Sequence record: SRR2962707_2232
Direction: 5' to 3' (one strand)
DNA: 64,000 bases
Shown here piece by piece: positions 7,509 through 38,751 of this stretch. The position numbers were made by a program, and so were the translations under genes. The first letter of the stretch is position 1; every line of letters starts with the position of its first letter. The notes under the pieces are model-generated. The model saw only the letters and a list, made by a program, of their open reading frames with translations, did not search any database and was not told the origin of the DNA.

Positions 7509-8963
7509 TTAGGATGCCAAACCACTCATCAACATATATTTGAGTTCCGTGAATTCTTCGATGCCATGGCGCGACCCTTCGCGGCCGGTGCCGGACTCTT
7601 TGACGCCGCCAAAGGGCGCAACAGCGGTCGATAACATACCGGTGTTGATGGCAACCATGCCGTATTCAAGTGCTTCGGCAACGCGCCAAATGCGTCCGAT
7701 ATCACGGGAATAAAAGTAGGAAGCCAGTCCAACATCGGTTGCATTGGCAAGTTCGATAACTTCTTCATCAGTTTCAAACTTGTAGAGCGGCGCAACGGGG
7801 CCGAAAATTTCATCCTGCGTTACGTTCATATTGGTTGTCACATTAGTGAGAACTGTTGGTTTGTAAAAACGTCCGCCAAGCGCATGTTTTTCGCCGCCGG
7901 TTGCGACATGCGCGCCCTTATCGACCGCGTCTTTGACAAGGCTCTCGACCTTTGAAATTGCCGCATCATTGATGAGCGGTCCAAGGGTGACGCCTGGTTC
8001 ATTGCCTGCGCCTACGACGATCTTGTTTACTTCAGCTGTCAGTTTTTCGGCAAATTCGTCATAGACACTTGCCTGAACATAAAGCCGGTTTGAGCAGACG
8101 CATGTTTGGCCCGCATTGCGGTATTTAGATGCGAGCGCCCCTTTGACAGCCTCATCAATATTGGCATCATCAAAAACAATAAACGGTGCGTTGCCGCCCA
8201 GCTCAAGGCCCATGCGTTTAACGGTATCGGCGCATTGTTTAATCAGTAGCTTGCCGATGGGTGTTGAGCCGGTAAATGTCATCACGCGCACATCTTTGCT
8301 GGCGCAAAGTGCGTTGCCGATTGCCACCGCATCGCCCGAAATCACATTGAGCGCGCCATCGGGCAGGCCGGCCTGCTGCGCAAGCGCCGCCATCGCAAAA
8401 GCTGTGAGCGGTGTGTCGGGCGCTGGTTTTACAATGGCGGTACAACCTGCGGCCAGCGCAGGCGCAACTTTGCGCGCGATCATCGCCGCTGGAAAATTCC
8501 ACGGCGTAATGGCGGCAACAACCCCAATTGGTTGGCGCAAAATGACGATGCGTCCATCTTCAAACGGGCTTGGAATTGTTTCGCCATAGATGCGCTTTGC
8601 TTCCTCGGCATAAAACTCCACAAAAGAAGCAGCGTAAAGGATTTCGCCTTTTGCTTCTTGAAGCGGTTTGCCTTGTTCTTCTGTGAGGATTGCTGCCAGC
8701 GTGTCAGCATTTTCTACGATTAGGTCAAACCATTTTTTGAGAATTGCAGAGCGGGTTTTGGCCAGTGTTTTTGACCAAGTTTTAAACGTGGCCGCCGCGG
8801 CATCAATGGCTTGATTGGCCTCAGCTTCACCAAAATTGGGAACCTTTGCAATCTCTAAGCCATTGGCAGGATTGATGATAATGTCTTCGCCGCTCCCGAC
8901 CCATGCACCATTGATAAAGCATTGGGTTTTTCTAATGTCGAGTGCGGCGTTGTCCATTGTCAT
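7509..8963 (-). CDS. gabD: NAD(P)-dependent succinate-semialdehyde dehydrogenase
   Basis: EQGKPLQEAKGEI..FYAEEAKRIYGETIP, ITPWNFPAAMIARKVAPALAAGC, ELGGNAPFIVF, NAGQTCVC (catalytic Cys), APFGGVKESG.GREGS. Confidence 0.9.
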   Translation of the reverse strand: MTMDNAALDIRKTQCFINGAWVGSGEDIIINPANGLEIAKVPNFGEAEANQAIDAAAATFKTWSKTLAKTRSAILKKWFDLIVENADTLAAILTEEQGKPLQEAKGEILYAASFVEFYAEEAKRIYGETIPSPFEDGRIVILRQPIGVVAAITPWNFPAAMIARKVAPALAAGCTAIVKPAPDTPLTAFAMAALAQQAGLPDGALNVISGDAVAIGNALCASKDVRVMTFTGSTPIGKLLIKQCADTVKRMGLELGGNAPFIVFDDANIDEAVKGALASKYRNAGQTCVCSNRLYVQASVYDEFAEKLTAEVNKIVVGAGNEPGVTLGPLINDAAISKVESLVKDAVDKGAHVATGGEKHALGGRFYKPTVLTNVTTNMNVTQDEIFGPVAPLYKFETDEEVIELANATDVGLASYFYSRDIGRIWRVAEALEYGMVAINTGMLSTAVAPFGGVKESGTGREGSRHGIEEFTELKYMLMSGLAS

Positions 8964-8997
8964 TGTTCCATCTGATGTATTGGTTATCGTAAACGCG

Positions 8998-9921
8998 CTA
9001 TTTTTTTCCTGCTAACCAGTCCGCTACAACCTTAACCTGCTCTTCGTTGCGAAGCGTTGGTGTGTGTCCGGTGTCATCAAATTCAACCAAGGTCGCTTTG
9101 GGGCCACAGGTCAGCATTTTCTGTGCTGTTTCTTCTGACAAAAAGCTTGAGTTCTTCCCGCGCAAGACAAGAACAGGGCAGGAAATTTGTTCCCATGTGT
9201 TCCACATATCGACATTGTGATAAGAGATTGAATCGCGGAATGCTTCGCCAACTTGCCTGTCGGTTTTCAAGCGCCATGTGCCCCTTTGGGTGCGGCGGCT
9301 TGAATATTTAGCCATGTGCTCCCAGTCTTCATCGGTCATTGGCGCAAATTCGGTGTGAACCGAGCGCAAATAGTTTTCGACATCTTTTTGACTTTGGAAT
9401 TCGCCTTCTTTGCCGATGTATTCGCCCAGTGAAACCAATGCACTGCGCGACACTTCTGGACCAATATCATTGACGATGAGACGGCGTATCGGCGATTGCG
9501 GCATCGACGCGAGTACCATGCCGATAATGCCGCCCATTGAGGTGCCGAGCCAGTTGCATTCAGTCACGCCAAGGCGCGCGATCAATGCGTTCATGTCTGA
9601 ATTGTACTGGAGATAGTTATAACCATCATCTGAATCGATATGGTCGCTGTCGCCGCGCCCCACAACATCGGGGCAGATAACGCGGTATTTTGAACATAGA
9701 TGGGAGGCGATAAAATCAAAGTCTCGCGAATTGCGCGTAATGCCGTGAACACAAAGCAATGTTTCTTGGGTATCAAACTTTTCCGCATCACCCCATTCGA
9801 GGTAGTTGATGCGGTGAAATCCATGGAATCCTAAACCCAAATAATATTGCTTGGAATAGGCCTTTTCGGGCTGAAATATTTTCTTTGGCACGGGCAAATA
9901 TGATCCTGATAATTTGAACAT
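8998..9921 (-). CDS. Alpha/beta hydrolase, PhaZc(PhaY2)-like intracellular hydroxybutyrate-oligomer hydrolase
   Basis: HRINYLEWGD, CVHGITRNSRDFD, CPDVVGRG, GTSMGG nucleophile elbow, NDIGP and GHTP match my recollection of Cupriavidus PhaZc. Start overlaps the phaR stop (TAATG). Confidence 0.72.
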   Translation of the reverse strand: MFKLSGSYLPVPKKIFQPEKAYSKQYYLGLGFHGFHRINYLEWGDAEKFDTQETLLCVHGITRNSRDFDFIASHLCSKYRVICPDVVGRGDSDHIDSDDGYNYLQYNSDMNALIARLGVTECNWLGTSMGGIIGMVLASMPQSPIRRLIVNDIGPEVSRSALVSLGEYIGKEGEFQSQKDVENYLRSVHTEFAPMTDEDWEHMAKYSSRRTQRGTWRLKTDRQVGEAFRDSISYHNVDMWNTWEQISCPVLVLRGKNSSFLSEETAQKMLTCGPKATLVEFDDTGHTPTLRNEEQVKVVADWLAGKK

Positions 9922-10583
9922 TATTTAAGCGATTTGAGACGTTTTTGTAGCTGATCAATTTCCGCTTGCATTCGCTCTAATTCATCTTGGCGGCTTTTAT
10001 CCTCTGCTAAATGACTAACTTCGTCAGATTTTTGATCATCGGTGCTTGAAGGGGCGACCGTCTCGTTCATCGCGCCGATCATTTGCCAAGATTTTTTGAA
10101 AAGTTCCATATTCTGGCGTGCAATGCTCTGACTGAAATCCATCATGGCCTGCGCATTGCGGTTCACAACCGAGCCCATGGCCTCAGACATCCGATTTTTC
10201 TCTGAGAAAAACAGATTCATCGATTCTGTTAGATAGTCGGGTACCATCGCTGCATAGGTATCGCCATACATGCTGATAAGCTGCTTTTGAACTTCTAGCG
10301 TCAAATGGTAGTCGCGCGGCTTAACTTCCCGCTCAAAGATAATTTGATTGAGTATGCTGCGAGTAATGTCTTCGCCCGTTTTTTGGTCGATAATGACAAA
10401 GGCGGTGTTGGCTTTGATAAGCTCAACGATGTCATCGAGCACGATATAAGCGCTCGACGCTGTGTTGTAGAGCCGACGATTGGGATATTTCTTGATTAGG
10501 ATTGAATCTGGGTCAATCGCCGGTGTTTGAGCATCATTTCGCTTCGCTCCTTTTGCAGGTGTTTTTCTAAGCGAGTTTGGCAT
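9921..10583 (-). CDS. phaR: Polyhydroxyalkanoate synthesis repressor PhaR
   Basis: IKKYPNRRLYNTASSAYIVLDDI...DQKTGEDITRSILNQIIFE DNA-binding domain, VPDYLTESM accumulation domain, C-terminal coiled coil. Confidence 0.93.
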   Translation of the reverse strand: MPNSLRKTPAKGAKRNDAQTPAIDPDSILIKKYPNRRLYNTASSAYIVLDDIVELIKANTAFVIIDQKTGEDITRSILNQIIFEREVKPRDYHLTLEVQKQLISMYGDTYAAMVPDYLTESMNLFFSEKNRMSEAMGSVVNRNAQAMMDFSQSIARQNMELFKKSWQMIGAMNETVAPSSTDDQKSDEVSHLAEDKSRQDELERMQAEIDQLQKRLKSLK

Positions 10584-10602
10584 TTATTCCCTCAATGCAT
10601 GT

Positions 10603-10674
10603 TGCGGCGCACAATATGTATAAAAACCTAGAGCATTTAGTGCTGGAATTCTACATAAATGTTGCGCCGCACAA
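10603..10674. promoter_or_regulatory. Two PhaR-type operators upstream of phaR
   Basis: TGCGGCGCACAA (10603-10614) and TGCGCCGCACAA (10663-10674), exactly 60 bp apart. Both fit the TGC-N3-GCA / TGCRNYGCASMA PhaR motif. Confidence 0.7.
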
Positions 10675-10690
10675 CAAAAATATTCCAACG

Positions 10691-10727
10691 AAAAACCGCT
10701 GGTCAGAGTGATCTGGACCAGCGGTTT
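10691..10727 (-). terminator. Rho-independent terminator of the phasin gene
   Basis: AAACCGCTGGTC...GACCAGCGGTTT inverted repeat; on the minus strand the hairpin is followed by TTTTT. Confidence 0.75.
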
Positions 10728-10756
10728 AAAACTTTAACATTTATACTAAGAAAAGC

Positions 10757-11140
10757 TTAGAATGTTACAGCGAAGCCTTTTGTGTAAGCTGCGCGGCCAG
10801 CGTCTGTTGTATCTTTCATTGCTTTAGTTGAAAGCTCAGCAACAGTTTTTGACTGCTCCATCATACGCTCAGCGCTTGCTGCTGCTGTTGATGTTGCTAC
10901 TTTGTAGAATTCAGCTGCGTCTTTAGTTTTGTTAAGTGCTTTAACACCGTCAAAAGCTGCTGCTACGTTAGCAAGGTAGTTGTCGTACATTTTTTTAGCG
11001 ACAACTTCACCGCTTTTCATTACAGCGCTGTTGAATTCAACCATGCTTTCGAAAGCTTTTTCTGTGCTCGCGATTTGCTTTGTTGCGAATTCTTGTGTTT
11101 TTTCCATTGTTTCTTTTACTTCGGCTTTAGCTGCAGACAT
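10757..11140 (-). CDS. phaP: Phasin (PHA granule-associated protein)
   Basis: 127 aa, Ala/Lys/Thr-rich, helical (NVAAAFDGVKALNKTKDAAEFYKV...MEQSK). AGGAG RBS, own terminator, next to phaR and PhaR boxes. Confidence 0.82.
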   Translation of the reverse strand: MSAAKAEVKETMEKTQEFATKQIASTEKAFESMVEFNSAVMKSGEVVAKKMYDNYLANVAAAFDGVKALNKTKDAAEFYKVATSTAAASAERMMEQSKTVAELSTKAMKDTTDAGRAAYTKGFAVTF

Positions 11141-11230
11141 TTTTGATCTCCTGATCATTGGTTGCGGGGGTACGCATTACTTGCTGTAAGGTTCTTGGGA
11201 GGACCTCTTTCGTTATTAATAGCAGATTTT

Positions 11231-11338
11231 TTGTGCATTGCAACAGAAAATATTGCACTGCACCATTTTTGGCTCGGAATTGATGTTTTACTGGATGCCA
11301 ACTATCTGATAATTCTGCGTTTTTGTGGCGCTGCACAA
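11231..11338. promoter_or_regulatory. PhaR-type operators in the divergent phaP / PHA-operon intergenic region
   Basis: TTGTGCATTGCA (11231-11242; reverse complement TGCAATGCACAA), TGCACTGCACCA (11254-11265), and imperfect TTGTGGCGCTGCACAA (11323-11338). Confidence 0.65.
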
Positions 11339-11524
11339 ATTTAATTTATTTGACAATGAGCCCATTATGTATTCGTCTGTCATTACAGTCACACTGAAAA
11401 ATGTAAGTGTGACATGGGCGCTAAGATTCGGATTCACTCGTTTGTTGGTCGCAAAGATCAAGGTGAAGTTTTCTTAGGGTCAGGAGTGGAATTAATCGAG
11501 TTCTAAGCACAACGGGAACACAAT

Positions 11525-13177
11525 ATGACAAATACGATGAATGCAGCTCAACTCTTGGTGAAATGCTTAGAAAATGAAGGTGTAGAATATATTTTTGGTA
11601 TTCCCGGCGAAGAAAACATTGCCGTAATGGATGCGCTTCTCGATAGTCCCATTAAATTTATTATTACGCGCCATGAGCAAGCGGCAGCGTTTATGGCTGA
11701 TGTTTATGGCCGATTGACCGGCCGCGCTGGCGTATGCATGTCAACGCTAGGACCTGGCGCGACAAACTTGGTGACCGGCGTTGCTGACGGTAATATGGAC
11801 CGCGCGCCGATGGTAGCGATTGCAGGGCAGGGCGCGACGACACGTATGCATAAGGAGAGCCATCAGGTTCTCAACTTGGTCAATTTGTTTGATCCGATCA
11901 CTAAATATAGCGTTCAGATACGCGAACCTGAAATTGTGCCAGAAATTGTCCGCAAAGCGTTCAAATTTGCACAGGCTGAAAAGCCCGGCGCTTCGTTTAT
12001 CGATTTTCCTGAGAACATTGCCGACATGGAAGTCGGAGATGCCATTCCGCTTCGTGTGCAATCGCCAACAATGCCAACAGCGGCTGTTGGTAAATGTGGG
12101 CAGGCGGCGAGCGTTATCAGCGCTGCGAAAAATCCTATCATCATCGCGGGCAATGGCATTATTAGAAATGGAGCCTCACAGGCGCTTGTTGATTTTGCCG
12201 AAGAAATCAACGCGCCGGTGGCAACAACCTTTATGGCCAAGGGCGTTATGCCTTCTTCGCACCCTCTAAGCCTTGGTACAGTTGGCCTTAAAGCGCATGA
12301 TTTGGTTGCCTTTGGTATTGATGAGGCCGATCTGGTTATCTGCGTTGGCTATGACATGGTTGAATATGACCCTGCCTTCTGGAACGGTAAGCGTGATAAG
12401 ATCATCATTCATGTGGATGCGACGCCTGCTGAGGTGGATGCCAATTACATCGTTGAATTGGGCGTTATTGGCGATTTGAAAGATTCATTGAAACGCATTT
12501 CAGCGCGTTGTGAACGCTCGCCGAATAAGCCGATGGCTAAATTGCGCGAAAAAATCGTCAAAGAGTTGACTAAACATGCTGACGATACGGGCTATCCGGT
12601 TAAACCACAAAAAATCATTTGCGATATTCGCAAGGTGCTTAATCCAGAAGACATCGTGATTTCCGATGTAGGCGCCCATAAAATGTGGATGGCGCGCATG
12701 TACCAAGCCGAACGGCCGAACACTTGCATCATCTCTAACGGCTTTGCTTCTATGGGTATTGCGCTACCGGGCGCTATTGCGGCCAAATTGGTTTATCCTG
12801 AGCGTAATATTCTGGCGGTTGCTGGCGATTCCGGCTTCATGATGAACAGCCAAGAAATTGAAACGGCTGTACGTCTTGGTCTCAATATTACTGTCATCAT
12901 CTTCAATGATAACAAATATGGCCTCATCGAATGGCATCAGCTTCGCCATTATGGACGCAAGAGCCATATTGATGTGACCAATCCTGATTTTAAAATGTTT
13001 GCAGAAAGCTTCGGCGCGAAGGGCTATAAAGTCGAGAGCGCAGACCAGTTGCAAGGCATTTTGGAAACTGCACTTAATGACGGAACTGTTTCTATTATTG
13101 ATTGTCCTGTGGACTACTCGGAGAACATGAAGTTAACTGAGCGTCTCAAGGCAATGAAATCCATAGATCAGGAATAA
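11525..13177 (+). CDS. ThDP-dependent enzyme of the acetolactate synthase large-subunit family; OgdA-like, putative 2-oxoglutarate decarboxylase
   Basis: RHEQ catalytic Glu and GDSGFMMN...FNDNKYG ThDP motif. LENEGVEYIFGIPGEEN, MHKESHQ, PVKPQKII, ISDVGAHKMWMAR and RPNTCIISNGFASMG track my recollection of the cyanobacterial OgdA subfamily. No ilvH or ilvC nearby. Confidence 0.75.
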   Translation: MTNTMNAAQLLVKCLENEGVEYIFGIPGEENIAVMDALLDSPIKFIITRHEQAAAFMADVYGRLTGRAGVCMSTLGPGATNLVTGVADGNMDRAPMVAIAGQGATTRMHKESHQVLNLVNLFDPITKYSVQIREPEIVPEIVRKAFKFAQAEKPGASFIDFPENIADMEVGDAIPLRVQSPTMPTAAVGKCGQAASVISAAKNPIIIAGNGIIRNGASQALVDFAEEINAPVATTFMAKGVMPSSHPLSLGTVGLKAHDLVAFGIDEADLVICVGYDMVEYDPAFWNGKRDKIIIHVDATPAEVDANYIVELGVIGDLKDSLKRISARCERSPNKPMAKLREKIVKELTKHADDTGYPVKPQKIICDIRKVLNPEDIVISDVGAHKMWMARMYQAERPNTCIISNGFASMGIALPGAIAAKLVYPERNILAVAGDSGFMMNSQEIETAVRLGLNITVIIFNDNKYGLIEWHQLRHYGRKSHIDVTNPDFKMFAESFGAKGYKVESADQLQGILETALNDGTVSIIDCPVDYSENMKLTERLKAMKSIDQE

Positions 13178-13183
13178 TTAAAA

Positions 13184-14338
13184 ATGCAGTCATTTCAGTT
13201 TCAGACTACTAAATCTATCCTATGCGAAGTCGGTGCAACAGCAAAAATCGGCGAAATCATGGCCGCGATGGGCTGTAAGAAAATTGCCTTTGTTACCGAT
13301 AAAATGATCCTTGATCTTGGCTTGGCGAACGCCGCACTTGAAGGCTTTAAAAAAGCAAATCTTGGCGTGCATATCATTGATGAAGTTGTTGCTGATCCGC
13401 CAGAAGCGATGATTTTGAAAGCCGTTGAGGACGCTAAACGAGAAGGCGTTGACGGCGTTGTATCTGTTGGCGGCGGCTCGTCGCTTGATACGGCTAAACT
13501 GATTGCTGTTTTGGTCAATTCAAAGCAGCAAATCAGCGAAATGTATGGTGTGGGTCTCGTAACTGGAAGTCGTTTGCCACTCGTTTTGGCGCCAACAACA
13601 GCGGGCACCGGTTCTGAAGTGACGCCGATCTCGATTGTGACAACGGGCACAAATGAGAAAAAAGGTGTTGTATCACCGCAGCTATTGCCAGACTGGGCGA
13701 TTTTGGATGCTGAACTAACCGTTGGGCTTCCAGCCCATGTGACGGCAGCGACCGGCATTGACGCGATGGTGCATGCGATTGAAGCCTACACATCGAAATT
13801 TAAGAAGAACATTGTGTCTGACACATTGGCGCGTCAGGCATTAGAATTGCTGGGCGGGAATATCCACACGGCTTGTACCAAAGGTGATGACCGCGAGGCG
13901 CGTTCAAACATGCTGCTTGGCTCAATGCTTGCGGGTATGGCCTTTGCAAACGCACCTGTGGCGGCCGTTCATGCGCTTGCTTATCCGCTTGGCGGCCATT
14001 TCCACGTGCCGCACGGCCTGTCGAACGCCTTGGTTTTGCCATACGTGCTTGATTTTAATATGAGCGAAGCCTCTGCGCTTTACGCTGAGATTGGCCCGAT
14101 TATTTTCCCGCACTTGGCTGGAAAATCAGCAGCAGATATCGGTGCTGGCATGGTCGAAGGCTTTAAAGCGATGGGACCTGAGCTTGGTATGAAAAGCAAA
14201 CTTTCTGAGGTTGGCGTCAACCATAATAATCTACCTATGTTGGCCGAAGACGCCATGAAACAAACCCGTTTGCTGGTCAATAATCCACGTGAAATGACTT
14301 ACGAGACGGCGCTCGAGATCTACACACAAGCGCTATAA
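13184..14338 (+). CDS. Iron-containing alcohol dehydrogenase, omega-hydroxyacid (BlcB/AttL, 5-hydroxyvalerate dehydrogenase-like) subfamily
   Basis: GGGSSLD, PTTAGTGSEVTPISIVTTG, TAATGIDAMVHAIEAYTSK, APVAAVHALAYPLGGHFHVPHGLSNA (Fe ligands), DAMKQTRLLVNNP. Confidence 0.8.
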   Translation: MQSFQFQTTKSILCEVGATAKIGEIMAAMGCKKIAFVTDKMILDLGLANAALEGFKKANLGVHIIDEVVADPPEAMILKAVEDAKREGVDGVVSVGGGSSLDTAKLIAVLVNSKQQISEMYGVGLVTGSRLPLVLAPTTAGTGSEVTPISIVTTGTNEKKGVVSPQLLPDWAILDAELTVGLPAHVTAATGIDAMVHAIEAYTSKFKKNIVSDTLARQALELLGGNIHTACTKGDDREARSNMLLGSMLAGMAFANAPVAAVHALAYPLGGHFHVPHGLSNALVLPYVLDFNMSEASALYAEIGPIIFPHLAGKSAADIGAGMVEGFKAMGPELGMKSKLSEVGVNHNNLPMLAEDAMKQTRLLVNNPREMTYETALEIYTQAL

Positions 14339-14368
14339 ATTTGTGATTAGCAAAGTTGGGAGACGATA

Positions 14369-15172
14369 ATGGCTGACAAAGACAACTTCGAGCAAATGAT
14401 GGACATCTGGAGTGAAGGCCAGGCAAGTTTTTTCAAAGCGCAGCAAGAAGTAATTAAGGGCTTTGAAAAGTCATTATCGTCATTCGGCGGCGCGACAAGT
14501 TCAAATCCGATGGCCGATTCGATGGCAACATCAATGGCCAGTTGGCAGAGCTTTATAAAATCTTGGGCGCCTGATTGGGACCCAAGCTCTATGATGATGA
14601 ACAACGATAACTCACAAATGTTCACGCGGGGCCGTGATGCCTTTATGGCGATGTTTGATCCGGCCAATTGGACGAATTATGCACCAGAGCAATTGCGCAT
14701 TATCTTGCAGAGTATTTCGCAAGGACCGCAATTTGCCGATATTGCAATGCCGCAGATTGATGCTGCTGAAGCTTGGCGCGAAACGCTGGATTATCAGCAA
14801 GCCTCCATTGCGATGGCAAAAGTGTTGCAAGACGCATGGGCACGCACTTTTGAGCGTTATTCAGAAAAATATACGCTTGATGATCTGCGCTCTGGCAATG
14901 TGAAAGAAGCGCTGGATGAATGGCTGAAAGCGGCCAATGCTGAGTTGCTTGAAACACAGCGCACACAAGCCTTTATGGATGCACAGCGCGGTATGCTGCG
15001 TGCTTCGATGGAAATAAAAGCGCGGCAGCGCGAGACGGCTGAAGCGTGGAGCGATGCTTATCAAATGCCAACGCGCACAGAAATTGATGATCTTGCAAAG
15101 ACGGTTCATGAAATGCGCCGTGAAATGCGGATATTGAAACGTCAGGTAGCGTCGATGAAGGTGGGCAAATAA
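14369..15172 (+). CDS. phaE: Class III PHA synthase subunit PhaE
   Basis: Helical protein ending WLKAANAELLETQRTQAFM...MPTRTEIDDLAKTVHEMRREMR, typical of the PhaE C-terminus; directly upstream of phaC. Confidence 0.85.
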   Translation: MADKDNFEQMMDIWSEGQASFFKAQQEVIKGFEKSLSSFGGATSSNPMADSMATSMASWQSFIKSWAPDWDPSSMMMNNDNSQMFTRGRDAFMAMFDPANWTNYAPEQLRIILQSISQGPQFADIAMPQIDAAEAWRETLDYQQASIAMAKVLQDAWARTFERYSEKYTLDDLRSGNVKEALDEWLKAANAELLETQRTQAFMDAQRGMLRASMEIKARQRETAEAWSDAYQMPTRTEIDDLAKTVHEMRREMRILKRQVASMKVGK

Positions 15173-15176
15173 AGTG

Positions 15177-16376
15177 ATGCCAGTGCGTAGAGATAAATCT
15201 GGCAAACCCATTAGTTCAATGGAAGCCGCGGGCGAGGCGTGGACGCTTGCTTGGAAACAAATGATGGATATTGGGCAGCAGTCTGTCCGCTCAAATTTGT
15301 TTCTCAATGATATTACCAATGGTGAAGTTGAGATTGCTGAAACACCGTCTGATGTGGTGTTTCAGATCGATAAGGTGCGTGTGTCGCGCTACCGGCCATT
15401 GGCTGCGCCCAACAAAGATGCCGACCCTATATTGATTTGCTATGGTCTTTTTGGTCGTCAAACAATGATCGACCTGCAAGAAGATCGCTCGCTTGTGCGC
15501 AATTTGTTGATGGCAGGCATTGATGTCTATGTGGTTGATTGGGGCAATCCTACACGGGCCGATCAATATCTGACATTTGACGATTACATCGACCTTTACC
15601 TTGGCTCTTGTGTCGAGCATTTGGTGGAAGCCAATGGCGGCAAACCCATTCGCATGTTTGGCATTTGCGAGGGCGGCACATTTTCAACCGCGCTTGCAGC
15701 CATGCGGCCTGAACTGTTTTCAGGCCTTGCGCTGGCGATTACGCCAATTGATTTTGAAGGCAAGCCGGATGAGTTTTGGGCTGGCGAAGGTTTTTTGAAC
15801 TCATGGTTCCAGAACTTGACCGAAGACGATGTGAATTTGGTTATTGATACGCTGGGCATGTTACCGGGCGCGATGACGGGCGCAGTGTTCTCTTCGCTTT
15901 CGCCGGTAAATAGCATGACGAAGTATAATGTCGGCTTAGCGAAGCTCGATGGCAATCATGATGCGATGCTCAACTTTTTGCGTATGGAAAAGTGGATTGC
16001 TGATCGCCCTGACCACCCAGGCGAAGCTGCGCGACAATGGATCAACCAGCTTTACCGCGAAAACCAATTGGTGAAGGGTGAATTTGTTGTCAGTGGCGAG
16101 AAGATTGATCTAACCAAAATCGCCTGTCCGGTTTTAAACATCTTTGCTGAGCAAGATCATATCGTGCCGGTAAGTTGTTCTAAAGCGCTGGGCGACTATG
16201 TTGATACTAAGCTTTATGAGGAAATTGGGTTTCCAGGCGGTCATGTGGGAGTGTTCGTCAGTCGCAAAGCGCAAGGCGTTGTGGCCGATGGATTGATTGA
16301 CTGGATGACACGCACGACCAAAGCGCCAGCGCGTGCCAAGGCAAGTCCGCGGAAAAAGCCAGCAGCTACAAAGTAA
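15177..16376 (+). CDS. phaC: Class III PHA synthase subunit PhaC
   Basis: About 400 aa. TPSDVVFQIDKVRVSRY, DLQEDRSLVRNLL..GIDVYVVDWG, lipase box GICEGG, NFLRMEKWIADRPDHPGEA, catalytic Asp (EQDHIV) and His (GGHVG). Alternative GTG start at 15174. Confidence 0.92.
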   Translation: MPVRRDKSGKPISSMEAAGEAWTLAWKQMMDIGQQSVRSNLFLNDITNGEVEIAETPSDVVFQIDKVRVSRYRPLAAPNKDADPILICYGLFGRQTMIDLQEDRSLVRNLLMAGIDVYVVDWGNPTRADQYLTFDDYIDLYLGSCVEHLVEANGGKPIRMFGICEGGTFSTALAAMRPELFSGLALAITPIDFEGKPDEFWAGEGFLNSWFQNLTEDDVNLVIDTLGMLPGAMTGAVFSSLSPVNSMTKYNVGLAKLDGNHDAMLNFLRMEKWIADRPDHPGEAARQWINQLYRENQLVKGEFVVSGEKIDLTKIACPVLNIFAEQDHIVPVSCSKALGDYVDTKLYEEIGFPGGHVGVFVSRKAQGVVADGLIDWMTRTTKAPARAKASPRKKPAATK

Positions 16377-16399
16377 TTTAAGCGGAGGAATAATAGGCC

Positions 16400-18340
16400 A
16401 TGGTCGACAAAGTTGTACGCTTGGAGGATGCAATCGCCACAATCGCTGATGGTGATACTGTTTGCGTATCGGGCTTTGTTGGCATTGGCACACCAGAATG
16501 TTTGTTGCGTGGATTGCAAAAGCGTTATTTGTCTCACGCATCTCCGAAAAATATATCGCTACTTTTTGCGGCCGCCCCCGGTGACGGCAAAGAGCGCGGC
16601 CTCAACCGTCTGGCGATTCCAGGTTTGGTAAAGCGGGCCATTGGTGGGCATTGGTCTTTAGTGCCTAAGCTTGGCGCGATGGCAATGCGCAATGAAATTG
16701 AAGCCTATAATTTACCGCTTGGCTGCATATCGCAGCTTTACCGCGATATTGCGGGCGGCAAGCCCGGCATGTTTTCAAAAGTTGGCTTGCGCACATTCGT
16801 CGATCCACGCCAATCAGGCGGTGCTATCAATGAATGCACGACCAAGCCGCTTGTTGAACTAAAAGAGCTTAATGGCGAAGAATGGCTATTCTATCATTCG
16901 GTGCCCGTTGACGTAGCGCTTATTCGCGGCACTACAGCTGATAGCCACGGCAATATCACCATGGAGCGCGAGGCGCTGACCTTGGATATGTTGCCGATAG
17001 CGATGGCCGCAAAAAACTCTGGCGGTTTGGTCATTGCACAAGTTGAGCGGATCGCAGCGGTTGGTTCGCTTGATCCTAAACAGGTGGTTGTGCCTGGCAA
17101 TTTGGTTGATTGCATCGTGATCTCCGAGCCTGATGAACATCAGCAAACCTATGCGTCCGCCTATCAGCATAGTTTTACCGGTCGCATGCGCGCAGACATT
17201 AAAAATGTTCAGCCTATGGAATTAAATGAGCGCAAGATTATTGCGCGGCGTGCGGCGATGGAATTGCCGGTCAATGGTGTCGTCAATTTGGGTATTGGGA
17301 TGCCGGAAGGTGTTTCGGCGGTAGCCAATGAAGAGGGCATTATCAACAATATCACGCTGACAACAGAAGCGGGTGTGTTTGGCGGTGTTCCGCAGTCTGG
17401 GCTTGATTTTGGCGCTGCGATTAATGCCGATGCGATTATTCAGACCAATCAGCAATTTGATTTTTATGATGGCGGCGGCTTGGACCTCGCTTGCCTTGGC
17501 ATGGCGGAAGCCGATCAAAACGGCGATGTAAATGTGAGCCGGTTTAAAGATCGGTTTGCCGGCGCTGGTGGATTTATCAATATTTCGCAAAATGCACGCA
17601 AAGTTATTTTTGTCGGCACCTTCACGGCTGGCGGTTTGAAAATACAAGTTGCCAACGGGCAGATGAGTATTTTGCAAGAAGGGCGCAATCGCAAATTTAT
17701 CGATAAGGTGGAGCAGATCACTTTTAACGGCCGTTATGCCGCCGAGCAGAACAAAGAAGTGCTTTATGTCACGGAACGCTGTGTTTTCCGCCTAACGGAT
17801 AATGGCCTGAAACTTGCAGAAGTTGCGCCGGGCATTGATATAGAAAAAGACATTCTTCAGCAGATGGATTTTAAACCGATTGTTGACGATCCTTGTCTGA
17901 TGGATCTGCGTATTTTCCAAGACAAGCGTATGAATTTGCGCAGCCAGCTTTTGGATATGCCGCTTAAAAACCGCTTGGTTTATGACAAGCAGCAAAACAT
18001 TGTGTTTGTGAATTTGAGCGGATTGCTGATTGAAAATGAAGAAGACTTGGCGGCTTTCGATAAGGGGCTAAATGAGTTTTTCTCCTCGCTCGAAACGCGC
18101 GTAAATCTTATTTCAAACTATGATGGCATTTCAGTTTCACCGCATATGGCGCCTAAATTTGCCAATGTGTTGGGGCAGTTGGAATATGATTATTATCTGA
18201 CCGCGACCCGCTACACGACAAGCGCCTTTTTGCGCAAGAAATTGGGTGAAGACCTTAAAACGCGCTCTATAGCGCCGCATATCTTTGAAACGCGCAAAGA
18301 AGCGGCCGACTATGTGTTGGCCAACCGTTCAGATCGGTAA
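16400..18340 (+). CDS. Family I acyl-CoA transferase (YdiF/Pct-type, fused alpha-beta) with an extra C-terminal domain
   Basis: IGGHWSLVP, AYNLPLGCISQLYRDIA, KVGLRTFVDPR, VNLGIGMPEGV, catalytic Glu in TTEAGVFGG, QQFDFYDGGGLD, GAGGFINISQNA. Roughly 125-130 residues extend past the usual end. Confidence 0.88.
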   Translation: MVDKVVRLEDAIATIADGDTVCVSGFVGIGTPECLLRGLQKRYLSHASPKNISLLFAAAPGDGKERGLNRLAIPGLVKRAIGGHWSLVPKLGAMAMRNEIEAYNLPLGCISQLYRDIAGGKPGMFSKVGLRTFVDPRQSGGAINECTTKPLVELKELNGEEWLFYHSVPVDVALIRGTTADSHGNITMEREALTLDMLPIAMAAKNSGGLVIAQVERIAAVGSLDPKQVVVPGNLVDCIVISEPDEHQQTYASAYQHSFTGRMRADIKNVQPMELNERKIIARRAAMELPVNGVVNLGIGMPEGVSAVANEEGIINNITLTTEAGVFGGVPQSGLDFGAAINADAIIQTNQQFDFYDGGGLDLACLGMAEADQNGDVNVSRFKDRFAGAGGFINISQNARKVIFVGTFTAGGLKIQVANGQMSILQEGRNRKFIDKVEQITFNGRYAAEQNKEVLYVTERCVFRLTDNGLKLAEVAPGIDIEKDILQQMDFKPIVDDPCLMDLRIFQDKRMNLRSQLLDMPLKNRLVYDKQQNIVFVNLSGLLIENEEDLAAFDKGLNEFFSSLETRVNLISNYDGISVSPHMAPKFANVLGQLEYDYYLTATRYTTSAFLRKKLGEDLKTRSIAPHIFETRKEAADYVLANRSDR

Positions 18341-18350
18341 AATACCAAAT

Positions 18351-18377
18351 AAGCCCGCTGAGAAAACGCGGGCTTTT
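18351..18377 (+). terminator. Rho-independent terminator of the PHA biosynthetic operon
   Basis: AAGCCCGC-TGAGAAAAC-GCGGGCTTTT, 10 nt after the CoA-transferase stop. Confidence 0.75.
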
Positions 18378-26411: not shown

Positions 26412-28139
26412 CTATCCCCTGAGTGCATGATAGAAGATTTTAGGCAGTTTCCACCAACGCGGCTTATACTGAAAGTCTGTCAGCGCTTTGCCAATTTTGT
26501 CTTGCTGCTTATTGGTGATGAAAAATGGCGGACGCGGAAGCAAAGTAAATTGCAAGGATAGAAGCCCGCGCGGGAACGGTCTCCATGGCGCGTAGACCAC
26601 TGTTTTTTCAGTTTCCTCTAGCATGAAAGAATTGTGAACCGTGCCGATGCCTGATTGCACATCATCAATCGTATGGCCGGGATAGGCGCCCCAAGGACAG
26701 CTATTGATCAAGAAGCCGAGGCCGCACCACGCATTGATGCCAATCGTGCCGTATTTTAGATCAGCAATAATGCCTTCGAATTTTGCTTTGCCAATTTCTC
26801 TAATGGTGCGGGGATGGATGACAATATTTGCGCCTAAGGTGCCCCATAGTTCTTCATTGGCATAGGCAATGGCGGCGCGAAGATAGGCCTCAGGATTTTC
26901 CGCGTCGATTTTGTGGATACCTAGAGCAGGACCAAAGACCTCGGCCTCGCGCTTATGGTCTTCAATATCGCCAATCACGAGGGCGGGGCTTTGCGAACCA
27001 CGATAGACCTTTTGAACCGCGCCAGCATGGCTTTCATAAGTAGCAAGTCGTGCATCAGTGCCAGGATACCACGCAGGGCGCAGTGATTTGGCTGCCACCT
27101 GTTTGATCGCTTGCAGAAGTTTTGTTGCCTGCGGCCAGTGCTCAGGTATGATCAGCGCTTGAGTCGCAATGCAATTATGGCCGCTATTGTGCAGCTTCAT
27201 GGTTGCGATGTGTTCTGCTTGAAATTTTATGTCTGCTGCGGACCAAGGGCCGGGCACAACAATCGTTGGGCTGACCGATCCAAGTTCTGATGTAAAGCGC
27301 TTATTGTTGCGCGGTGTGCCAGCCTTCTTATTCTTTTCGCCTTCAGCGGCCACACCCCAGACGATGGTATCGTGGGTCTTATCAGAGCCAGTAATGTGCA
27401 ATTCTTCAACGAGCGGATGGTCGCATAAATAGGAGCCGACTTTCCCGTCACCCTTCACAATGCGCAGTGCATTGATTTCGATGAATGCTTTGAAGGCGAT
27501 TTTATAATAATCGACCAGATAGTCATTGATTGGGTTCATTTTCAAAATGACGACCTGATTTTCGATCATCAATTTATGTAAGACATCAAGCGGTGTGATG
27601 GCATTGATATTGCCAGCGCCCAAAACCAAGGCGACTTTTCCTTTGCGCTCTTTTGCTGGCGTATCATAGGCGGTAGCCGCGTGATCTTTAAGGTTTGCTG
27701 CAGTGACGGTCTTTTGCATCCACACATCGGCATGAACACCAGACAGAAGCAGGCGATCCCAAATGGAATGGGGCAGCACCTGCACGGCCAGTTGGCCTGT
27801 GACCAATGTGCGCGTGGGCAAATGGTCGATAAATTTCTTGCCGTCCATTTGGCTGAGCGTGAGGCGCAAAGCGTCTACACCGGTCAACGTTGCATAGGGC
27901 CCTGAAATCCATTCTTCACCGGAGACCGGCATCGCGGCTGTCAGGCCTTTTTTGCGAGCTGAAATTTCTGCCCAACCCTGTGCTACGCGCATAATGCCTT
28001 CCTTGGTTACATCAAGGAGTTTCAGGCGCTCAGCAATTGTCTTTTGTGCCCAAATATTCTTGGCAGCATCGAGCGTAGCCAAATCCGCATCATAGTTACG
28101 ATAAATGTCTTTGTTTGTCTTCGCCTGAGCACGCGCCAT
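26412..28139 (-). CDS. Aldehyde dehydrogenase family protein (long, atypical subfamily)
   Basis: LVLGAGN, LKMNPIN, HITGS, SELGSVSP, HNSGHNCIA (catalytic Cys), EVFGP. Confidence 0.8.
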   Translation of the reverse strand: MARAQAKTNKDIYRNYDADLATLDAAKNIWAQKTIAERLKLLDVTKEGIMRVAQGWAEISARKKGLTAAMPVSGEEWISGPYATLTGVDALRLTLSQMDGKKFIDHLPTRTLVTGQLAVQVLPHSIWDRLLLSGVHADVWMQKTVTAANLKDHAATAYDTPAKERKGKVALVLGAGNINAITPLDVLHKLMIENQVVILKMNPINDYLVDYYKIAFKAFIEINALRIVKGDGKVGSYLCDHPLVEELHITGSDKTHDTIVWGVAAEGEKNKKAGTPRNNKRFTSELGSVSPTIVVPGPWSAADIKFQAEHIATMKLHNSGHNCIATQALIIPEHWPQATKLLQAIKQVAAKSLRPAWYPGTDARLATYESHAGAVQKVYRGSQSPALVIGDIEDHKREAEVFGPALGIHKIDAENPEAYLRAAIAYANEELWGTLGANIVIHPRTIREIGKAKFEGIIADLKYGTIGINAWCGLGFLINSCPWGAYPGHTIDDVQSGIGTVHNSFMLEETEKTVVYAPWRPFPRGLLSLQFTLLPRPPFFITNKQQDKIGKALTDFQYKPRWWKLPKIFYHALRG

Positions 28140-28141
28140 AA

Positions 28142-29770
28142 CTATTCTCCCCGTTCAATCAGGATGTTGCCGAACTGCGCACGTAGTTTGTTTTTGAGCA
28201 TTTTTCCGGTGCCGCCAATTGGAATAGAATCCGTGAAAATCACGGCATCTGGCTTTTGCCATTTGGCGACTTTTTCTTCAAACAGTGCCAAGATTTCTTC
28301 TTCGGTTGGGTCGCAGCCTTGTGCTTTTACCGCAATGATAATCGGGCGCTCATCCCATTTGGGATGTTTTGCGGCAATCGCTGCGGCCATGGCAATGCCC
28401 GAATGTGAAATGGCGATGCCTTCAAGTTCCACCGATGAAACCCATTCACCGCCCGATTTAATGATATCTTTTGTGCGGTCTCGAATGACCATAAAGCCAT
28501 CGGGATCGATGGTTGATACATCACCGGTGTCAAACCAGCCGTCAGCAGTTTTGGCGCTTTCCGCATTGCCAAAATAGGTGTCGACCACCCAATGGCCGCG
28601 CACCTGCAGTGCGCCTTGCGTGGCACCATCATGCGGCAAGATGCTGCCATCTTCATCGACAATGCGCAGATCAACGCCAAAGGGCGGTCTGCCCTGACCT
28701 AGTCTTAGGGCCGCCATTGCGTCAGGTGCTAGGTTTAAATGTTTGGCTTTTAGTTGGTTTGCAGTGCCAACGGGGCTTGTTTCGGTCATGCCCCATGCGT
28801 GGATTGTTTCGCAATTATAGTCGTCTCTAAATGTTGCAATCATGGATGGTGCCGCCGCAGAGCCGCCAATAACATTGCGGCGCAGGCTTTCCAATTTGCT
28901 GTCGAGTTTTTTGGCTGAAACAAGCAACATTTGCCAAATGGTTGGCACGCCGAGCGCGAGTGAAACTTTAAACTCATCAATCATGCCAACAAGGCTATCA
29001 CCATCAAGGCCCGGGCCCGGCATCACCATTTTTACGCCGTTCATAGCAGCTGCGTAAGGAATGCCCCACGCATTGACGTGGAACATGGGAACCACTGGCA
29101 TGATCGTATCGAGCGCAGAAATGCCGAGCGTATCTGGCAGCGAAATAGCAAAGGAATGCAGCACCGTTGAGCGGTTTGAGTAGAGCACGCCTTTTGGCTG
29201 ATCTGTTGTGCCCGATGTGTAGCAAAGCGAACACGGGGTTTTTTCATCGAGCTGCGGCCAGTCGAAGTCCTCACTGCCAGTTTCAATGAGTTCGTCAAAG
29301 AAAATAGCATAGGGCATTGTTGCAGCGATATCTTCGTCGCGTGCGCCCATGAAAATGAAATGCTCAATGGATTTGATATGTTCACGTGTCGCAACAATGA
29401 GGGGCGCAAATGTTTTATCAAAAAACATCGCCTTATCGCCAGCATCATTGCAGATGAAAATAAACTGATCGGGCGCAAGGCGCGGATTGAGCGTGTGGCA
29501 GACCATGCCGCTGCCTGAAACGGCAAACCAGATTTTCAAATGGCGCTGATTGTTCCAAGCTAAGGTGGCAAGCCGGTCGCCCTGCTTAAGGTCGAGTTTT
29601 TTTAACGCATTGGCCAGTTTGCGCGCGCCAATGCTAATGCCCGCCCAATCTGTGGTACTAATCTCACCGGTCGTCTCGCGTGAAATGATCTGTGTGTCGC
29701 CATGGAATTTTTCTGCGTGAACAATTAAATCGCTCACCAGAAGAGGGCGGTCCATCATTGAGCCAATCAT
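28142..29770 (-). CDS. Medium/long-chain acyl-CoA ligase (AlkK/DmdB-like)
   Basis: LCYTSGTT..PKG, VPMFHVNAWG, HAWGMTETSP, DRTKDIIKSGGEWVSS, HPKWDERP. Confidence 0.88.
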   Translation of the reverse strand: MIGSMMDRPLLVSDLIVHAEKFHGDTQIISRETTGEISTTDWAGISIGARKLANALKKLDLKQGDRLATLAWNNQRHLKIWFAVSGSGMVCHTLNPRLAPDQFIFICNDAGDKAMFFDKTFAPLIVATREHIKSIEHFIFMGARDEDIAATMPYAIFFDELIETGSEDFDWPQLDEKTPCSLCYTSGTTDQPKGVLYSNRSTVLHSFAISLPDTLGISALDTIMPVVPMFHVNAWGIPYAAAMNGVKMVMPGPGLDGDSLVGMIDEFKVSLALGVPTIWQMLLVSAKKLDSKLESLRRNVIGGSAAAPSMIATFRDDYNCETIHAWGMTETSPVGTANQLKAKHLNLAPDAMAALRLGQGRPPFGVDLRIVDEDGSILPHDGATQGALQVRGHWVVDTYFGNAESAKTADGWFDTGDVSTIDPDGFMVIRDRTKDIIKSGGEWVSSVELEGIAISHSGIAMAAAIAAKHPKWDERPIIIAVKAQGCDPTEEEILALFEEKVAKWQKPDAVIFTDSIPIGGTGKMLKNKLRAQFGNILIERGE

Positions 29771-29789
29771 GTTCGTACTCCCGTTTGTT

Positions 29790-31409: not shown

Positions 31410-31488
31410 CGTTCCTCCTCCCAAAGGTATCTGGCTGAAGCTCTCCCAAGCGCCAGATATGTGCAACGATTTTGAGACTACGTCCTTT

Positions 31489-38546: not shown

Positions 38547-38751
38547 CAAACGGGGACACCTAACACTATTTCCTCGTACGCTCGGGCTTCTTGGTAGCCG
38601 CACCTAAATTATAAATATGTTCCAAAAGGGACATGCTAACCAGTATATATTAACATAGTGGAATTTAAGGCGATATTCAAACTTAATTGATCGTACAAAT
38701 CAGCTATGCCATGAGTTGTAAAAAGCCCAAAACAGAAAAACGGAGCGCTAA

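Follow-up and report, generated by a model that had tools for sequence, protein, structure and literature searches.

A recurrent operon of marine Proteobacteria that probably encodes a 2-oxoglutarate-fed storage cycle for 4-hydroxybutyrate polyester

The stretch of 64,000 nucleotides from sequence record SRR2962707_2232 (hereafter the window, at its full length) carries, at positions 7509-18377, a cluster of nine genes that probably encodes a polyester storage cycle fed from 2-oxoglutarate. In such a cycle, 2-oxoglutarate would be decarboxylated to succinic semialdehyde (SSA), the SSA reduced to 4-hydroxybutyrate (4HB), and the 4HB activated to 4HB-CoA and polymerised by a polyhydroxyalkanoate (PHA) synthase, with return of the stored carbon to succinate. 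The route from 2-oxoglutarate to polyester had been proposed in an earlier note on this DNA and is the best-supported reading of the locus. The identities of its two redox enzymes, the linkage of the genes in related genomes, a Bosea plasmid bearing a citrate-linked version of the operon and the absence of PhaB from four relatives all point to it, whereas the decarboxylase, the CoA transfer and the identity of the polymer enter it as predictions.

Families were assigned to the nine proteins by Pfam and NCBIfam profile searches with curated cut-offs. The features of the cluster are the following:

7509-8963, minus strand: gabD, succinate-semialdehyde dehydrogenase (SSADH), predicted SSA-to-succinate return step (TIGR01780; identity to BlcA/AttK)
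8998-9921, minus strand: cluster-specific alpha/beta serine hydrolase (Abhydrolase_1, 70 bits)
9921-10583, minus strand: phaR, PHA granule-responsive repressor (PHB_acc_N, PHB_acc)
10599-10674, no strand: candidate operator between the phaR and phasin genes, a 16-nt direct repeat present twice (94% identity, spacing 60)
10757-11158, minus strand: phasin, granule surface protein (Phasin_2)
11159-11524, no strand: divergent promoter region with TGCA-containing repeats at 11230-11249, 11255-11269 and 11320-11342 (repeat search)
11525-13177, plus strand: thiamine diphosphate (ThDP)-dependent 2-oxoacid decarboxylase, 550 aa, proposed 2-oxoglutarate decarboxylase (NF006187)
13184-14338, plus strand: GhbD/BlcB-type iron-containing alcohol dehydrogenase (Fe-ADH), putative SSA reductase/4HB dehydrogenase (Fe-ADH and ADH_Fe_C domains)
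14369-15172, plus strand: phaE, class III PHA synthase subunit (PF09712)
15174-16376, plus strand: phaC, class III-type PHA synthase catalytic subunit (best match TIGR01836)
16400-18340, plus strand: GhbT-like family I CoA transferase of the YdiF/Pct type, 646 aa, proposed 4HB-CoA transferase (CoA_trans)
18351-18377, plus strand: intrinsic-terminator-like hairpin and T tract, operon end (read from the letters)

All nine open reading frames (ORFs) and the terminator described in the earlier note are present, and the five plus-strand genes, from the ThDP gene through the CoA transferase gene, are separated by gaps of 6, 30, 1 and 23 bp. As that note had also pointed out, the locus lacks phaA, phaB, phaJ and phaG: no thiolase, short-chain dehydrogenase/reductase-type reductase or MaoC hydratase is found among the nine genes. 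In tblastn searches with probes from a relative (PhaJ and class-I PhaC; PhaA and PhaG probes were not used), neither PhaJ nor class-I PhaC was detected in the 64 kb. The genes upstream of the cluster (sugar-ABC permeases and a GntR-type regulator) and downstream of it (a BMP-type ABC system and an amidase) are unrelated to it, and we therefore take 7509-18377 as the unit.

The proposed cycle would leave the tricarboxylic acid (TCA) cycle at 2-oxoglutarate and rejoin it at succinate, forming a self-contained 4HB polyester store. An NF006187-family ThDP enzyme is predicted to convert 2-oxoglutarate into SSA, which a GhbD/BlcB-type Fe-ADH, 55-58% identical to two enzymes with reported activity, would reduce to 4HB. 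The YdiF/Pct-type CoA transferase would then form 4HB-CoA, probably with acetyl-CoA as CoA donor, as its orthology with GhbT suggests, and PhaEC, in which the catalytic triad is present, would polymerise it; we infer both of these steps, and the nature of the polymer, from sequence. All synthesis steps would thus be encoded by the one plus-strand operon. Among the divergent genes, the phasin would coat the granule, PhaR would exert control and the hydrolase, more speculatively, may release 4HB or its oligomers. The return path would use the reversible Fe-ADH together with GabD, from 4HB through SSA to succinate.

The two redox enzymes are those with the closest named relatives. In a protein search of the plasmid collection, the window Fe-ADH is 55.3% identical over its full length (213/385 identities by BLASTP) to a protein of plasmid pAtC58 of Agrobacterium fabrum C58, whose gene lies between an SSADH gene and attM, downstream of blcR, and is therefore blcB/attL. 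It is also 55.5% identical over 384 aa to GhbD of Sinorhizobium meliloti HM006 and 57.5% identical to the homologue of S. meliloti ml21. The window GabD passes the SSADH model TIGR01780 (696.8 bits for a cut-off of 646.35) and shares 59% identity over 480 aa with BlcA/AttK of the same A. fabrum plasmid. The blcABC genes convert gamma-butyrolactone through gamma-hydroxybutyrate (GHB) and SSA to succinate, according to a review citing Chai et al. 2007 (PMC3907764), and purified GhbD is reported to reduce SSA with NADH or NADPH (PMC12636752). The functions proposed for the window Fe-ADH and GabD would thus follow from 55-59% identity to enzymes with reported activity.

The five-gene operon is conserved among relatives. 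Species-representative genomes contain 585 relatives of the ThDP gene that were confirmed; we took the best 80 of these and searched the surrounding loci (numbered with the prefix L) by tblastn with the nine window proteins; these loci are the closest relatives, so that the fractions given here describe the clade and not the whole NF006187 family. Most of them belong to marine metagenome-assembled genomes (MAGs) of the 'Rhizobiaceae-group' or Ahrensiaceae, with 79-85% identity, and the others include Pseudahrensia aquimaris, Paramylibacter, Amylibacter, Ruegeria, Fulvimarina and the gammaproteobacteria Leucothrix arctica and Arenicella. The order ThDP gene, Fe-ADH, (PhaE), PhaC, CoA transferase recurs in 32 of the 80 loci, from both alpha- and gammaproteobacteria (Ahrensiaceae-like MAGs, P. 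aquimaris, Paramylibacter, Amylibacter, Pacificoceanicola, Fulvimarina, Ruegeria, Leucothrix and Arenicella), a recurrence far beyond chance. Two further loci have the ThDP, Fe-ADH and PhaC genes with no CoA transferase gene seen, one of them on a contig that ends 4 kb after the ThDP gene and the other being L022, and in three the contig ends after the ThDP and Fe-ADH genes. An aldehyde dehydrogenase (ALDH) gene lies directly 3' of the ThDP gene in 14 loci, PhaC and CoA transferase genes occur near the ThDP gene without Fe-ADH in one (L064), and two have the ThDP-Fe-ADH pair without PHA genes; the contig ends less than 1.5 kb from the ThDP gene in five, and the remaining 21 have other neighbours. 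Altogether, Fe-ADH is the next gene after the ThDP gene in 39 of the 80 loci.

The gene-neighbourhood search that the earlier note had suggested as a check thus finds the five genes linked in 32 loci, with gabD at the same divergent end in 13 of them; in two loci (L004 and L038), gabD lies downstream of the operon. The divergent arm of phasin, phaR and hydrolase genes is present in the close clade, and a second arrangement, with the hydrolase gene after the CoA transferase gene, is found in L030, L031, L034, L038 and L051. The L. arctica locus (L029, 5915-17000) contains the whole cluster, including gabD, the hydrolase gene and phaR, with a ThDP enzyme 85% identical to that of the window.

We computed a quick tree of the ThDP enzymes with 80 rows (77 loci, the window, Bosea and S. 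meliloti ml21), in which support is SH-aLRT only; L030, L072 and L076 were left out because of stops in the high-scoring pair. One group of 32 rows, comprising the window and 31 loci, is entirely PHA-linked (support 91). The sister of the window enzyme is that of the gammaproteobacterium L. arctica (support 98); this placement suggests movement of the operon between the alpha- and gammaproteobacterial classes and a recent inter-class transfer behind the L. arctica cluster.

The same order is found with a divergent clade of the ThDP enzyme, 36-41% identical to that of the window and also of the NF006187 family, on plasmid pMl1 of S. meliloti ml21 and on a plasmid of Bosea vaviloviae. The ThDP gene of ml21 is intact, encodes an 'acetolactate synthase large subunit' of 529 aa (NF006187, 647 bits; 36% identical to the window enzyme) and is directly followed by genes for Fe-ADH, PhaE, PhaC and a 655-aa CoA transferase and by acs; between the window and ml21, the Fe-ADH is 57.5% identical, PhaC 46%, PhaE 35% and the CoA transferase 55% over 640 aa. 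This ThDP gene is a single ORF in ml21 (L094 7392-8981), whereas its homologue on pSymA of strain HM006 (L095 5299-6881) is split over two reading frames, covering residues 1-171 and 172-528. The split fits the description, in a preprint on HM006 discussed below, of the stretch upstream of ghbD as two annotated pseudogenes and a promoter (PMC12636752).

The plasmid of B. vaviloviae Vaf18 (L096 1-15926) carries a longer co-oriented run: acnA, a dehydrogenase resembling isocitrate dehydrogenase (IDH), the ThDP gene (NF006187, 820 bits), Fe-ADH, PhaE, PhaC and CoA transferase genes, and then genes for a phasin, an alpha/beta hydrolase, Acs, Ppa, Adk and a citrate:H+ symporter (CitMHS, 575 bits for a cut-off of 259.7). 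The position of the ThDP gene after an aconitase and an IDH-like gene, with a citrate symporter in the operon, indicates 2-oxoglutarate as the substrate. Read plainly, the genes of this module would lead from citrate through isocitrate, 2-oxoglutarate, SSA, 4HB and 4HB-CoA to polymer, with recycling of acetate, and the Bosea plasmid looks like a complete citrate-to-polyester module in which acetate, PPi and AMP would all be recycled.

The ThDP enzyme of the window matches the model NF006187 (PRK08322, 'acetolactate synthase large subunit') with 800.4 bits for a cut-off of 509. It contains the Pfam domains TPP_enzyme_N, M and C, the ThDP-binding motif (G434-D435-S436 ... N461-D462-N463) and the cofactor-activating glutamate E51; in the 80 loci, Ser, Ala or Gly occupies the third position of the motif. 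A study of the Microcystis 2-oxoglutarate decarboxylase (MaKGD), a protein of 550 aa, names 17 residues, with substrate contacts obtained by docking into a model. Thirteen of these 17 residues occur at the identical number in the window protein, also of 550 aa (V382, A384, H385, K386, A408, M410, G434, D435, G437, D462, Y465, L467 and Y531), while the cofactor glutamate is shifted by one position relative to MaKGD numbering, and the probable counterpart of MaKGD Q254 is K/Q256. The structure of Bacillus subtilis acetolactate synthase AlsS differs at six of the 13 shared positions, with I, S, A, Q, L and M at 382, 384, 386, 408, 410 and 467. In all 80 loci, E51, V382, A384, H385, K386, A408, M410, L467 and H471 are invariant, whatever the partner gene. 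A Methanoperedens-cluster protein found in the representative search (P0124) has 16 of the 17 MaKGD residues at a constant offset; among the matches listed for it (at least 120), all named homologues are archaeal. Zhang and Bryant (2011) are said to have drawn a link to methanogen homologues.

The genomic context of this enzyme points to an aldehyde product. The gene that follows the ThDP gene encodes an aldehyde-using enzyme in 53 of the 80 loci (Fe-ADH in 39, ALDH in 14), and the ThDP-ALDH pairs indicate that the product is an aldehyde that cells either oxidise or reduce. A GabD-type ALDH (57%) lies directly upstream of the ThDP gene in L044, and on three haloarchaeal plasmids an SSADH is annotated where the ThDP enzyme matches. 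From family, named residues and context, we infer that the enzyme decarboxylates 2-oxoglutarate to SSA. The label 'OgdA-like' that it had received in the earlier note agrees with its family membership, the 13 shared residues and the context, and is weakened by a histidine at the position of MaKGD Lys471. No cyanobacterial sequence occurs among the matches listed for the window enzyme (at least 120, all at least 70% identical), a search of the ESM Atlas returned solely 'acetolactate synthase' clusters and no cyanobacterial OgdA, and searches of the plasmid collection gave no cyanobacterial record.

Several loci of the ThDP gene have further neighbours. In four gammaproteobacterial loci (L050, L056, L057 and L075), the ThDP gene is followed downstream by the ALDH gene and by one for a protein of about 507 aa that is similar to the FMN domain of the large subunit of glutamate synthase, joined in three of the four by a Na+/H+ antiporter; L075 has a gamma-glutamyltransferase upstream, and the context of these loci is glutamate/2-oxoglutarate-flavoured. 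The best solved relative of the gammaproteobacterial ThDP-adjacent ALDH is plant ALDH21 (278.6 bits), an SSADH, in a match list too mixed for a substrate call. A mobilisable plasmid of Leisingera sp. S132 (L092 4688-12808) has a 69%-identical ThDP gene preceded by ALDH and cupin genes, with genes for a TetR regulator and a TRAP transporter beside it. In L031 (5072-8346), L034 (6316-9521) and L036 (6732-10013), the genes directly 5' of the ThDP gene encode a TRAP solute-binding protein of the TAXI family and a fused TRAP permease, two of these loci having the PHA operon and one the ThDP-Fe-ADH pair only. Such transporters may take up glutamate or 2-oxoglutarate, a possibility that we did not use as evidence.

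The genomes of four cluster-bearing relatives of the window source, distinct from the source itself, provide a background for the operon: P. aquimaris (G001), a complete MAG chromosome, L. arctica and Paramylibacter ulvae. None of the four has a protein above the cut-off of the PhaB model TIGR01829 (best matches 258-270 bits, cut-off 302), and the best match in P. aquimaris is the FabG encoded within fabD-fabG-acpP; the usual acetoacetyl-CoA route is therefore missing in these relatives. SucA is above its cut-off in all four, so that the decarboxylase is not needed for closure of the TCA cycle, and together with the lack of PhaB this makes it apparently dedicated to polymer supply; the polymer would therefore be expected to be rich in 4HB or to be a homopolymer, poly(4-hydroxybutyrate) (P4HB). 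Each of the four genomes has a single NF006187 match above the cut-off, encoded about 2 kb from a class III phaC in the two genomes compared by coordinates (G001 and G002). A second, class-I-like PhaC, below the cut-off, is present in three of the four. In P. aquimaris (L089 6133-12624), it belongs to a locus with a divergent gene for a wax ester synthase/diacylglycerol acyltransferase (WS/DGAT) and genes for an acyl-CoA synthetase, a MaoC-type (PhaJ-like) hydratase, this PhaC (584 aa, under the TIGR01838 cut-off) and an alpha/beta hydrolase; the window has no such locus.

PhaE matches PF09712 (53 bits, cut-off 25.7), and phaE ends 1 bp ahead of phaC. PhaC aligns with the Cupriavidus necator PhaC structure 5hz2 at the catalytic triad, formed by Cys165 in the G-x-C-x-G-G box (G-I-C165-E-G-G), Asp328 and His357. 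The CoA transferase, with fused alpha and beta halves, matches the Escherichia coli YdiF structure 2ahu (459.8 bits, residues 5-512) and is not a FadX equivalog (432.6 bits versus 750). It is 55% identical over 640 aa, including its C-terminal extension, to the S. meliloti cluster enzyme and 57.7% identical to that of Bosea. The extension of about 130 aa (searched as residues 501-646) has no Pfam match at E <= 10 and is conserved in GhbT and in 49 plasmid records at a coverage of at least 80%. A full-length, 49%-identical long CoA transferase that includes the extension is also encoded on a Tsukamurella tyrosinosolvens plasmid (L097 6631-9932), beside an acyl-CoA dehydrogenase and without PHA genes, so that PHA clusters are not the only setting of the extension. 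The phasin (Phasin_2, 46.1 bits, cut-off 24.9) and PhaR (DNA-binding domain PHB_acc_N, 91.9 bits; PHB_acc, 31.4 bits) are above the Pfam cut-offs; with TIGR01848, PhaR scores 108.3 bits, marginally under the cut-off of 109.45.

The hydrolase had been described in the earlier note as PhaZc-like, a label that we reject: it scores 66 bits with the intracellular short-chain-length PHA depolymerase model NF050089, whose cut-off is 300, and 66.6 bits with MenH. Its best PDB match is the 'putative hydrolase' 4ose (194 bits), and its best solved relatives are uncharacterised hydrolases. The protein has a G-T-S-M-G nucleophile elbow, groups with the hydrolases of the 32 loci and is 43.5% identical to the Bosea cluster hydrolase. 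Our guess is that it may act on 4HB polyester or oligomers in polymer mobilisation, or may be a lactonase opening a lactone formed from 4HB-CoA.

The repeats of the cluster could be regulatory. The two copies at 10599-10674, ATGTTGCGGCGCACAA and ATGTTGCGCCGCACAA, contain TGCG(G/C)CGCA, and the TGCA repeats within 11230-11342 are, by their likeness to TGC-rich PhaR boxes, candidate PhaR sites; both sets are possible PhaR operators. The hairpin at the end of the operon (18351-18375), read directly from the letters, consists of an 8-bp stem with a 9-nt loop and a TTTT tract to 18377 (AAGCCCGC, 9 nt, GCGGGCTT, then TT). It was missed by a consensus promoter and terminator scan, the yield of which was not above that on shuffled sequence. 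Elsewhere in the window, three consecutive genes on the minus strand (26412-31466) code for a GMC oxidoreductase, an acyl-CoA synthetase of the AMP-binding type and a protein of 575 aa that matches aldehyde dehydrogenases only weakly and in part, and TamB-like (1426 aa) and Omp85/TamA-like (660 aa) proteins, also on the minus strand (32341-38603), form an ordinary outer-membrane translocation/assembly module.

The window cluster is a variant of a recently proposed natural system and not a first. The earlier note knew of no described natural operon of this kind, a statement superseded by a Research Square preprint (Geddes et al. 2025, October 2025; PMC12636752) that proposes a natural P4HB cycle, ghbD-phaE-phaC-ghbT with attKLM, on pSymA of S. 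meliloti HM006. According to its main text, two loci, pha-1 and pha-2, each encode GhbD (an Fe-ADH), PhaE and PhaC, pha-1 also encodes GhbT and Acs, and both lie near attKLM; granules and Nile-red signal depend on the pha loci, SSA and GHB are raised in nodules, and SSA is taken from gamma-aminobutyric acid (GABA) (PMC12636752). The core genes of HM006 and the window are orthologous and in the same order (Fe-ADH 55.5% identical, PhaC 45%, CoA transferase 55%, PhaE 31%), and both systems have an AttK/GabD-type SSADH that would return carbon to succinate. They differ in the ThDP gene, which is intact and heads the operon in the window, whereas the HM006 homologue is split and falls in a different clade of this enzyme family (36% identity). 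HM006 has the AttM lactonase and acs, where the window has a phasin, PhaR and an alpha/beta hydrolase and no acs; HM006 is a nodule symbiont, and the window host a free-living marine bacterium. The words acetolactate, decarboxylase, oxoglutarate and ketoglutarate are absent from the main text of the preprint (PMC12636752), and, as far as our searches reach, the decarboxylase feed is the part that is not in print. New here relative to the preprint are this feed, the wide marine distribution, the apparent inter-class transfer and the granule-regulation arm.

Three other systems share parts of the proposed chemistry. In the cyanobacterial OgdA/SsaD bypass (SynPCC7002_A2770/A2771, sll1981, Microcystis MAE_06010), a 2-oxoglutarate decarboxylase of about 550 aa, annotated as acetolactate synthase, yields SSA for an SSADH, and the pairing of ogdA with ssaD resembles that of the window-enzyme relatives with ALDH in 14 of 80 loci. 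In the window, however, SSA would be reduced and polymerised and not merely oxidised; the window's relatives keep SucA and have no TCA gap, and residue 471 is His, not Lys, in a comparison made through the named residues only. The blcABC (attKLM) genes of plasmid pAt of A. fabrum C58, the source of the closest named relatives of the window Fe-ADH and GabD (BlcB and BlcA), have the GHB-SSA-succinate chemistry in common with the window. Unlike it, they are purely catabolic, under control of the IclR-type BlcR and associated with a lactonase of the metallo-lactamase fold; the window lacks such a lactonase, and its Fe-ADH lies within a biosynthetic operon. Engineered routes to 4HB polymers, in Synechococcus 7002 with ogdA, gbd1, cat2 and phaABEC and in E. 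coli with the Clostridium kluyveri genes sucD, 4hbD and orfZ (PMC7147479, PMC8659255), likewise combine a decarboxylase or SucD leading to SSA with a 4HB dehydrogenase, a CoA transferase and a PHA synthase. They draw their parts from several organisms and use the CoA transferases Cat2 or OrfZ, not one of the YdiF/Pct type, whereas in the window a single natural operon comes with a regulator, a phasin and a return path of its own. The clostridial 4HB dehydrogenase of the engineered routes belongs to a different Fe-ADH subfamily.

Several observations weigh against a 2-oxoglutarate-fed 4HB polyester cycle or narrow its basis. For the ThDP enzyme, the second-best family is AlsS (NF006378), with 530 bits for a cut-off of 510; all 80 loci have His in place of MaKGD Lys471, the residue docked against the carboxylate of the substrate; P0124, the nearest sequence linked to MaKGD by the named residues, shares 50% identity with the window enzyme; and members of NF006187 can be as little as 36% identical to one another, so that they need not all act on one substrate. 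The Fe-ADH falls outside the Cupriavidus-type 4-hydroxybutyrate dehydrogenase family NF058672 (232.4 bits, cut-off 500). PhaE is below the cut-off of TIGR01834 (54.6 bits), and PhaC scores 315.2 bits with its best family, TIGR01836, for a cut-off of 365.3; the PhaC orthologues of the four relatives are likewise under this cut-off, and the cluster PhaC is a divergent class III subgroup. Among the loci, L022 offers 10 kb of room in which tblastn found no CoA transferase gene. The Bosea dehydrogenase of the isocitrate/isopropylmalate family scores under every NCBIfam cut-off, its best match being the isocitrate dehydrogenase model (443 bits, cut-off 510), and the absence of PhaB covers the genomes of four relatives only. 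For HM006, the preprint reports a phenotype in ghbD knockouts only, and the words NMR, GC-MS, methanolysis and composition are absent from its main text, so that the rhizobial polymer is chemically unproven there (PMC12636752).

These points leave room for other readings. We regard it as unlikely that PhaEC makes poly(3-hydroxybutyrate) or another 3-hydroxyacyl polyester while the ThDP enzyme and Fe-ADH serve as a co-regulated redox or overflow valve from 2-oxoglutarate to 4HB that is not polymerised. Such a valve would account for L035 and L036, where the ThDP-Fe-ADH pair occurs with no PHA genes; 3-hydroxybutyrate could be a substrate of the CoA transferase, the literature consulted holds no polymer chemistry for systems of this type, and the phaC double mutants of HM006 retained the symbiotic phenotype, which is ascribed to GHB formation (PMC12636752). 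It is at odds with the packing of the five genes at gaps of 1-30 bp and their joint presence in 32 loci, with the failure to find PhaB in four of four relatives, with the presence, in the relative examined (P. aquimaris), of another locus, encoding PhaJ and a class-I-like PhaC, that serves 3-hydroxyacyl monomers, and with the loss of granules and Nile-red signal in HM006 strains without the pha loci (PMC12636752). Slightly less probable is a 4HB polyester whose SSA is supplied chiefly by transamination of GABA or in some other way, the ThDP enzyme acting on a different 2-oxoacid or as an accessory. The preprint does attribute SSA to GABA (PMC12636752), the HM006 pathway apparently works despite the split ThDP gene, and both the histidine in place of MaKGD Lys471 in the window clade and L064, with PhaC and CoA transferase genes near the ThDP gene and no Fe-ADH, would agree with this. 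The ThDP gene nevertheless heads the operon 6 bp before the Fe-ADH gene, a position that recurs in 39 of the 80 loci and again in the divergent second clade; in Bosea, it directly follows the aconitase and IDH-like genes, and its pairing with ALDH genes in 14 loci shows an aldehyde product.

A different chain length is less probable again. In that case, oxaloacetate would lead through malonate semialdehyde to 3-hydroxypropionate, or 2-oxoadipate to 5-hydroxyvalerate (the C5 analogue already named in the earlier note), and the product would be poly(3-hydroxypropionate) or a 5-hydroxyvalerate polyester. The substrates of the decarboxylase and of the YdiF/Pct-type CoA transferase are predicted only, and the Bosea dehydrogenase scores 342 bits with the homoisocitrate dehydrogenase model; its best match remains isocitrate dehydrogenase (443 bits), in the company of aconitase and a CitMHS symporter well above its cut-off, while the window GabD passes the SSADH cut-off and the enzymes of GHB/SSA conversion BlcB and BlcA share 55% identity with the Fe-ADH and 59% with GabD, respectively. 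Finally, all annotation sources call the ThDP enzyme 'acetolactate synthase large subunit', the closest solved structures are those of AlsS (389 bits), and the AlsS model is passed; we nonetheless consider it very improbable that the enzyme is a true catabolic acetolactate synthase in a coincidental neighbourhood. NF006187 scores far higher (800 bits), neither an acetolactate decarboxylase nor a small subunit is encoded nearby, the six MaKGD-shared positions that differ in B. subtilis AlsS include K386 and A408 (Gln in AlsS), and the next gene is aldehyde-using in 53 of 80 loci. Two further chemistries were rejected: sulfoacetaldehyde chemistry, as Xsc is not among the matches listed (the best 25 of 55 NCBIfam families), and an acetoin/butanediol pathway, as no AlsD was found.

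Beyond the window, we see an even chance that native synthesis of 4HB-rich polyester or P4HB from the TCA cycle, through a mobile five-gene operon, is a trait of many marine Alpha- and Gammaproteobacteria and of some soil plasmids, and, as part of this same joint reading, that the first enzyme of the operon is a dedicated 2-oxoglutarate decarboxylase. P4HB is the PHA of approved medical devices, and its production from cheap unrelated carbon has been achieved with recombinants only, apart from a few unexplained wild-type reports (PMC7147479, PMC8659255). Production could make use of parts from a compact natural operon, which would provide a decarboxylase, a reductase for SSA, a CoA transferase other than Cat2, a PhaEC accepting 4HB and a phasin/PhaR pair. 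Since culturable isolates such as P. aquimaris CCUG 60023, Paramylibacter ulvae KCTC 32465, L. arctica IMCC9719, Ruegeria lacuscaerulensis, Fulvimarina sp. MAC3 and B. vaviloviae Vaf18 carry the operon, the question of the polymer is directly testable.

If the proposed cycle is correct, PHA storage would have a second entry that does not start from acetyl-CoA, storing reducing power and re-entering central metabolism at succinate. The ThDP gene, broken in HM006 and intact in ml21 and Bosea, suggests that the cycle normally draws on 2-oxoglutarate or citrate and not on host GABA, and the rhizobial case of the preprint would then be a decayed copy of an ancestral decarboxylase-fed system. For abundant marine groups such as the Ahrensiaceae-like lineage, Amylibacter/Paramylibacter and Leucothrix, the operon would add a dicarboxylate-linked store of carbon and reductant.

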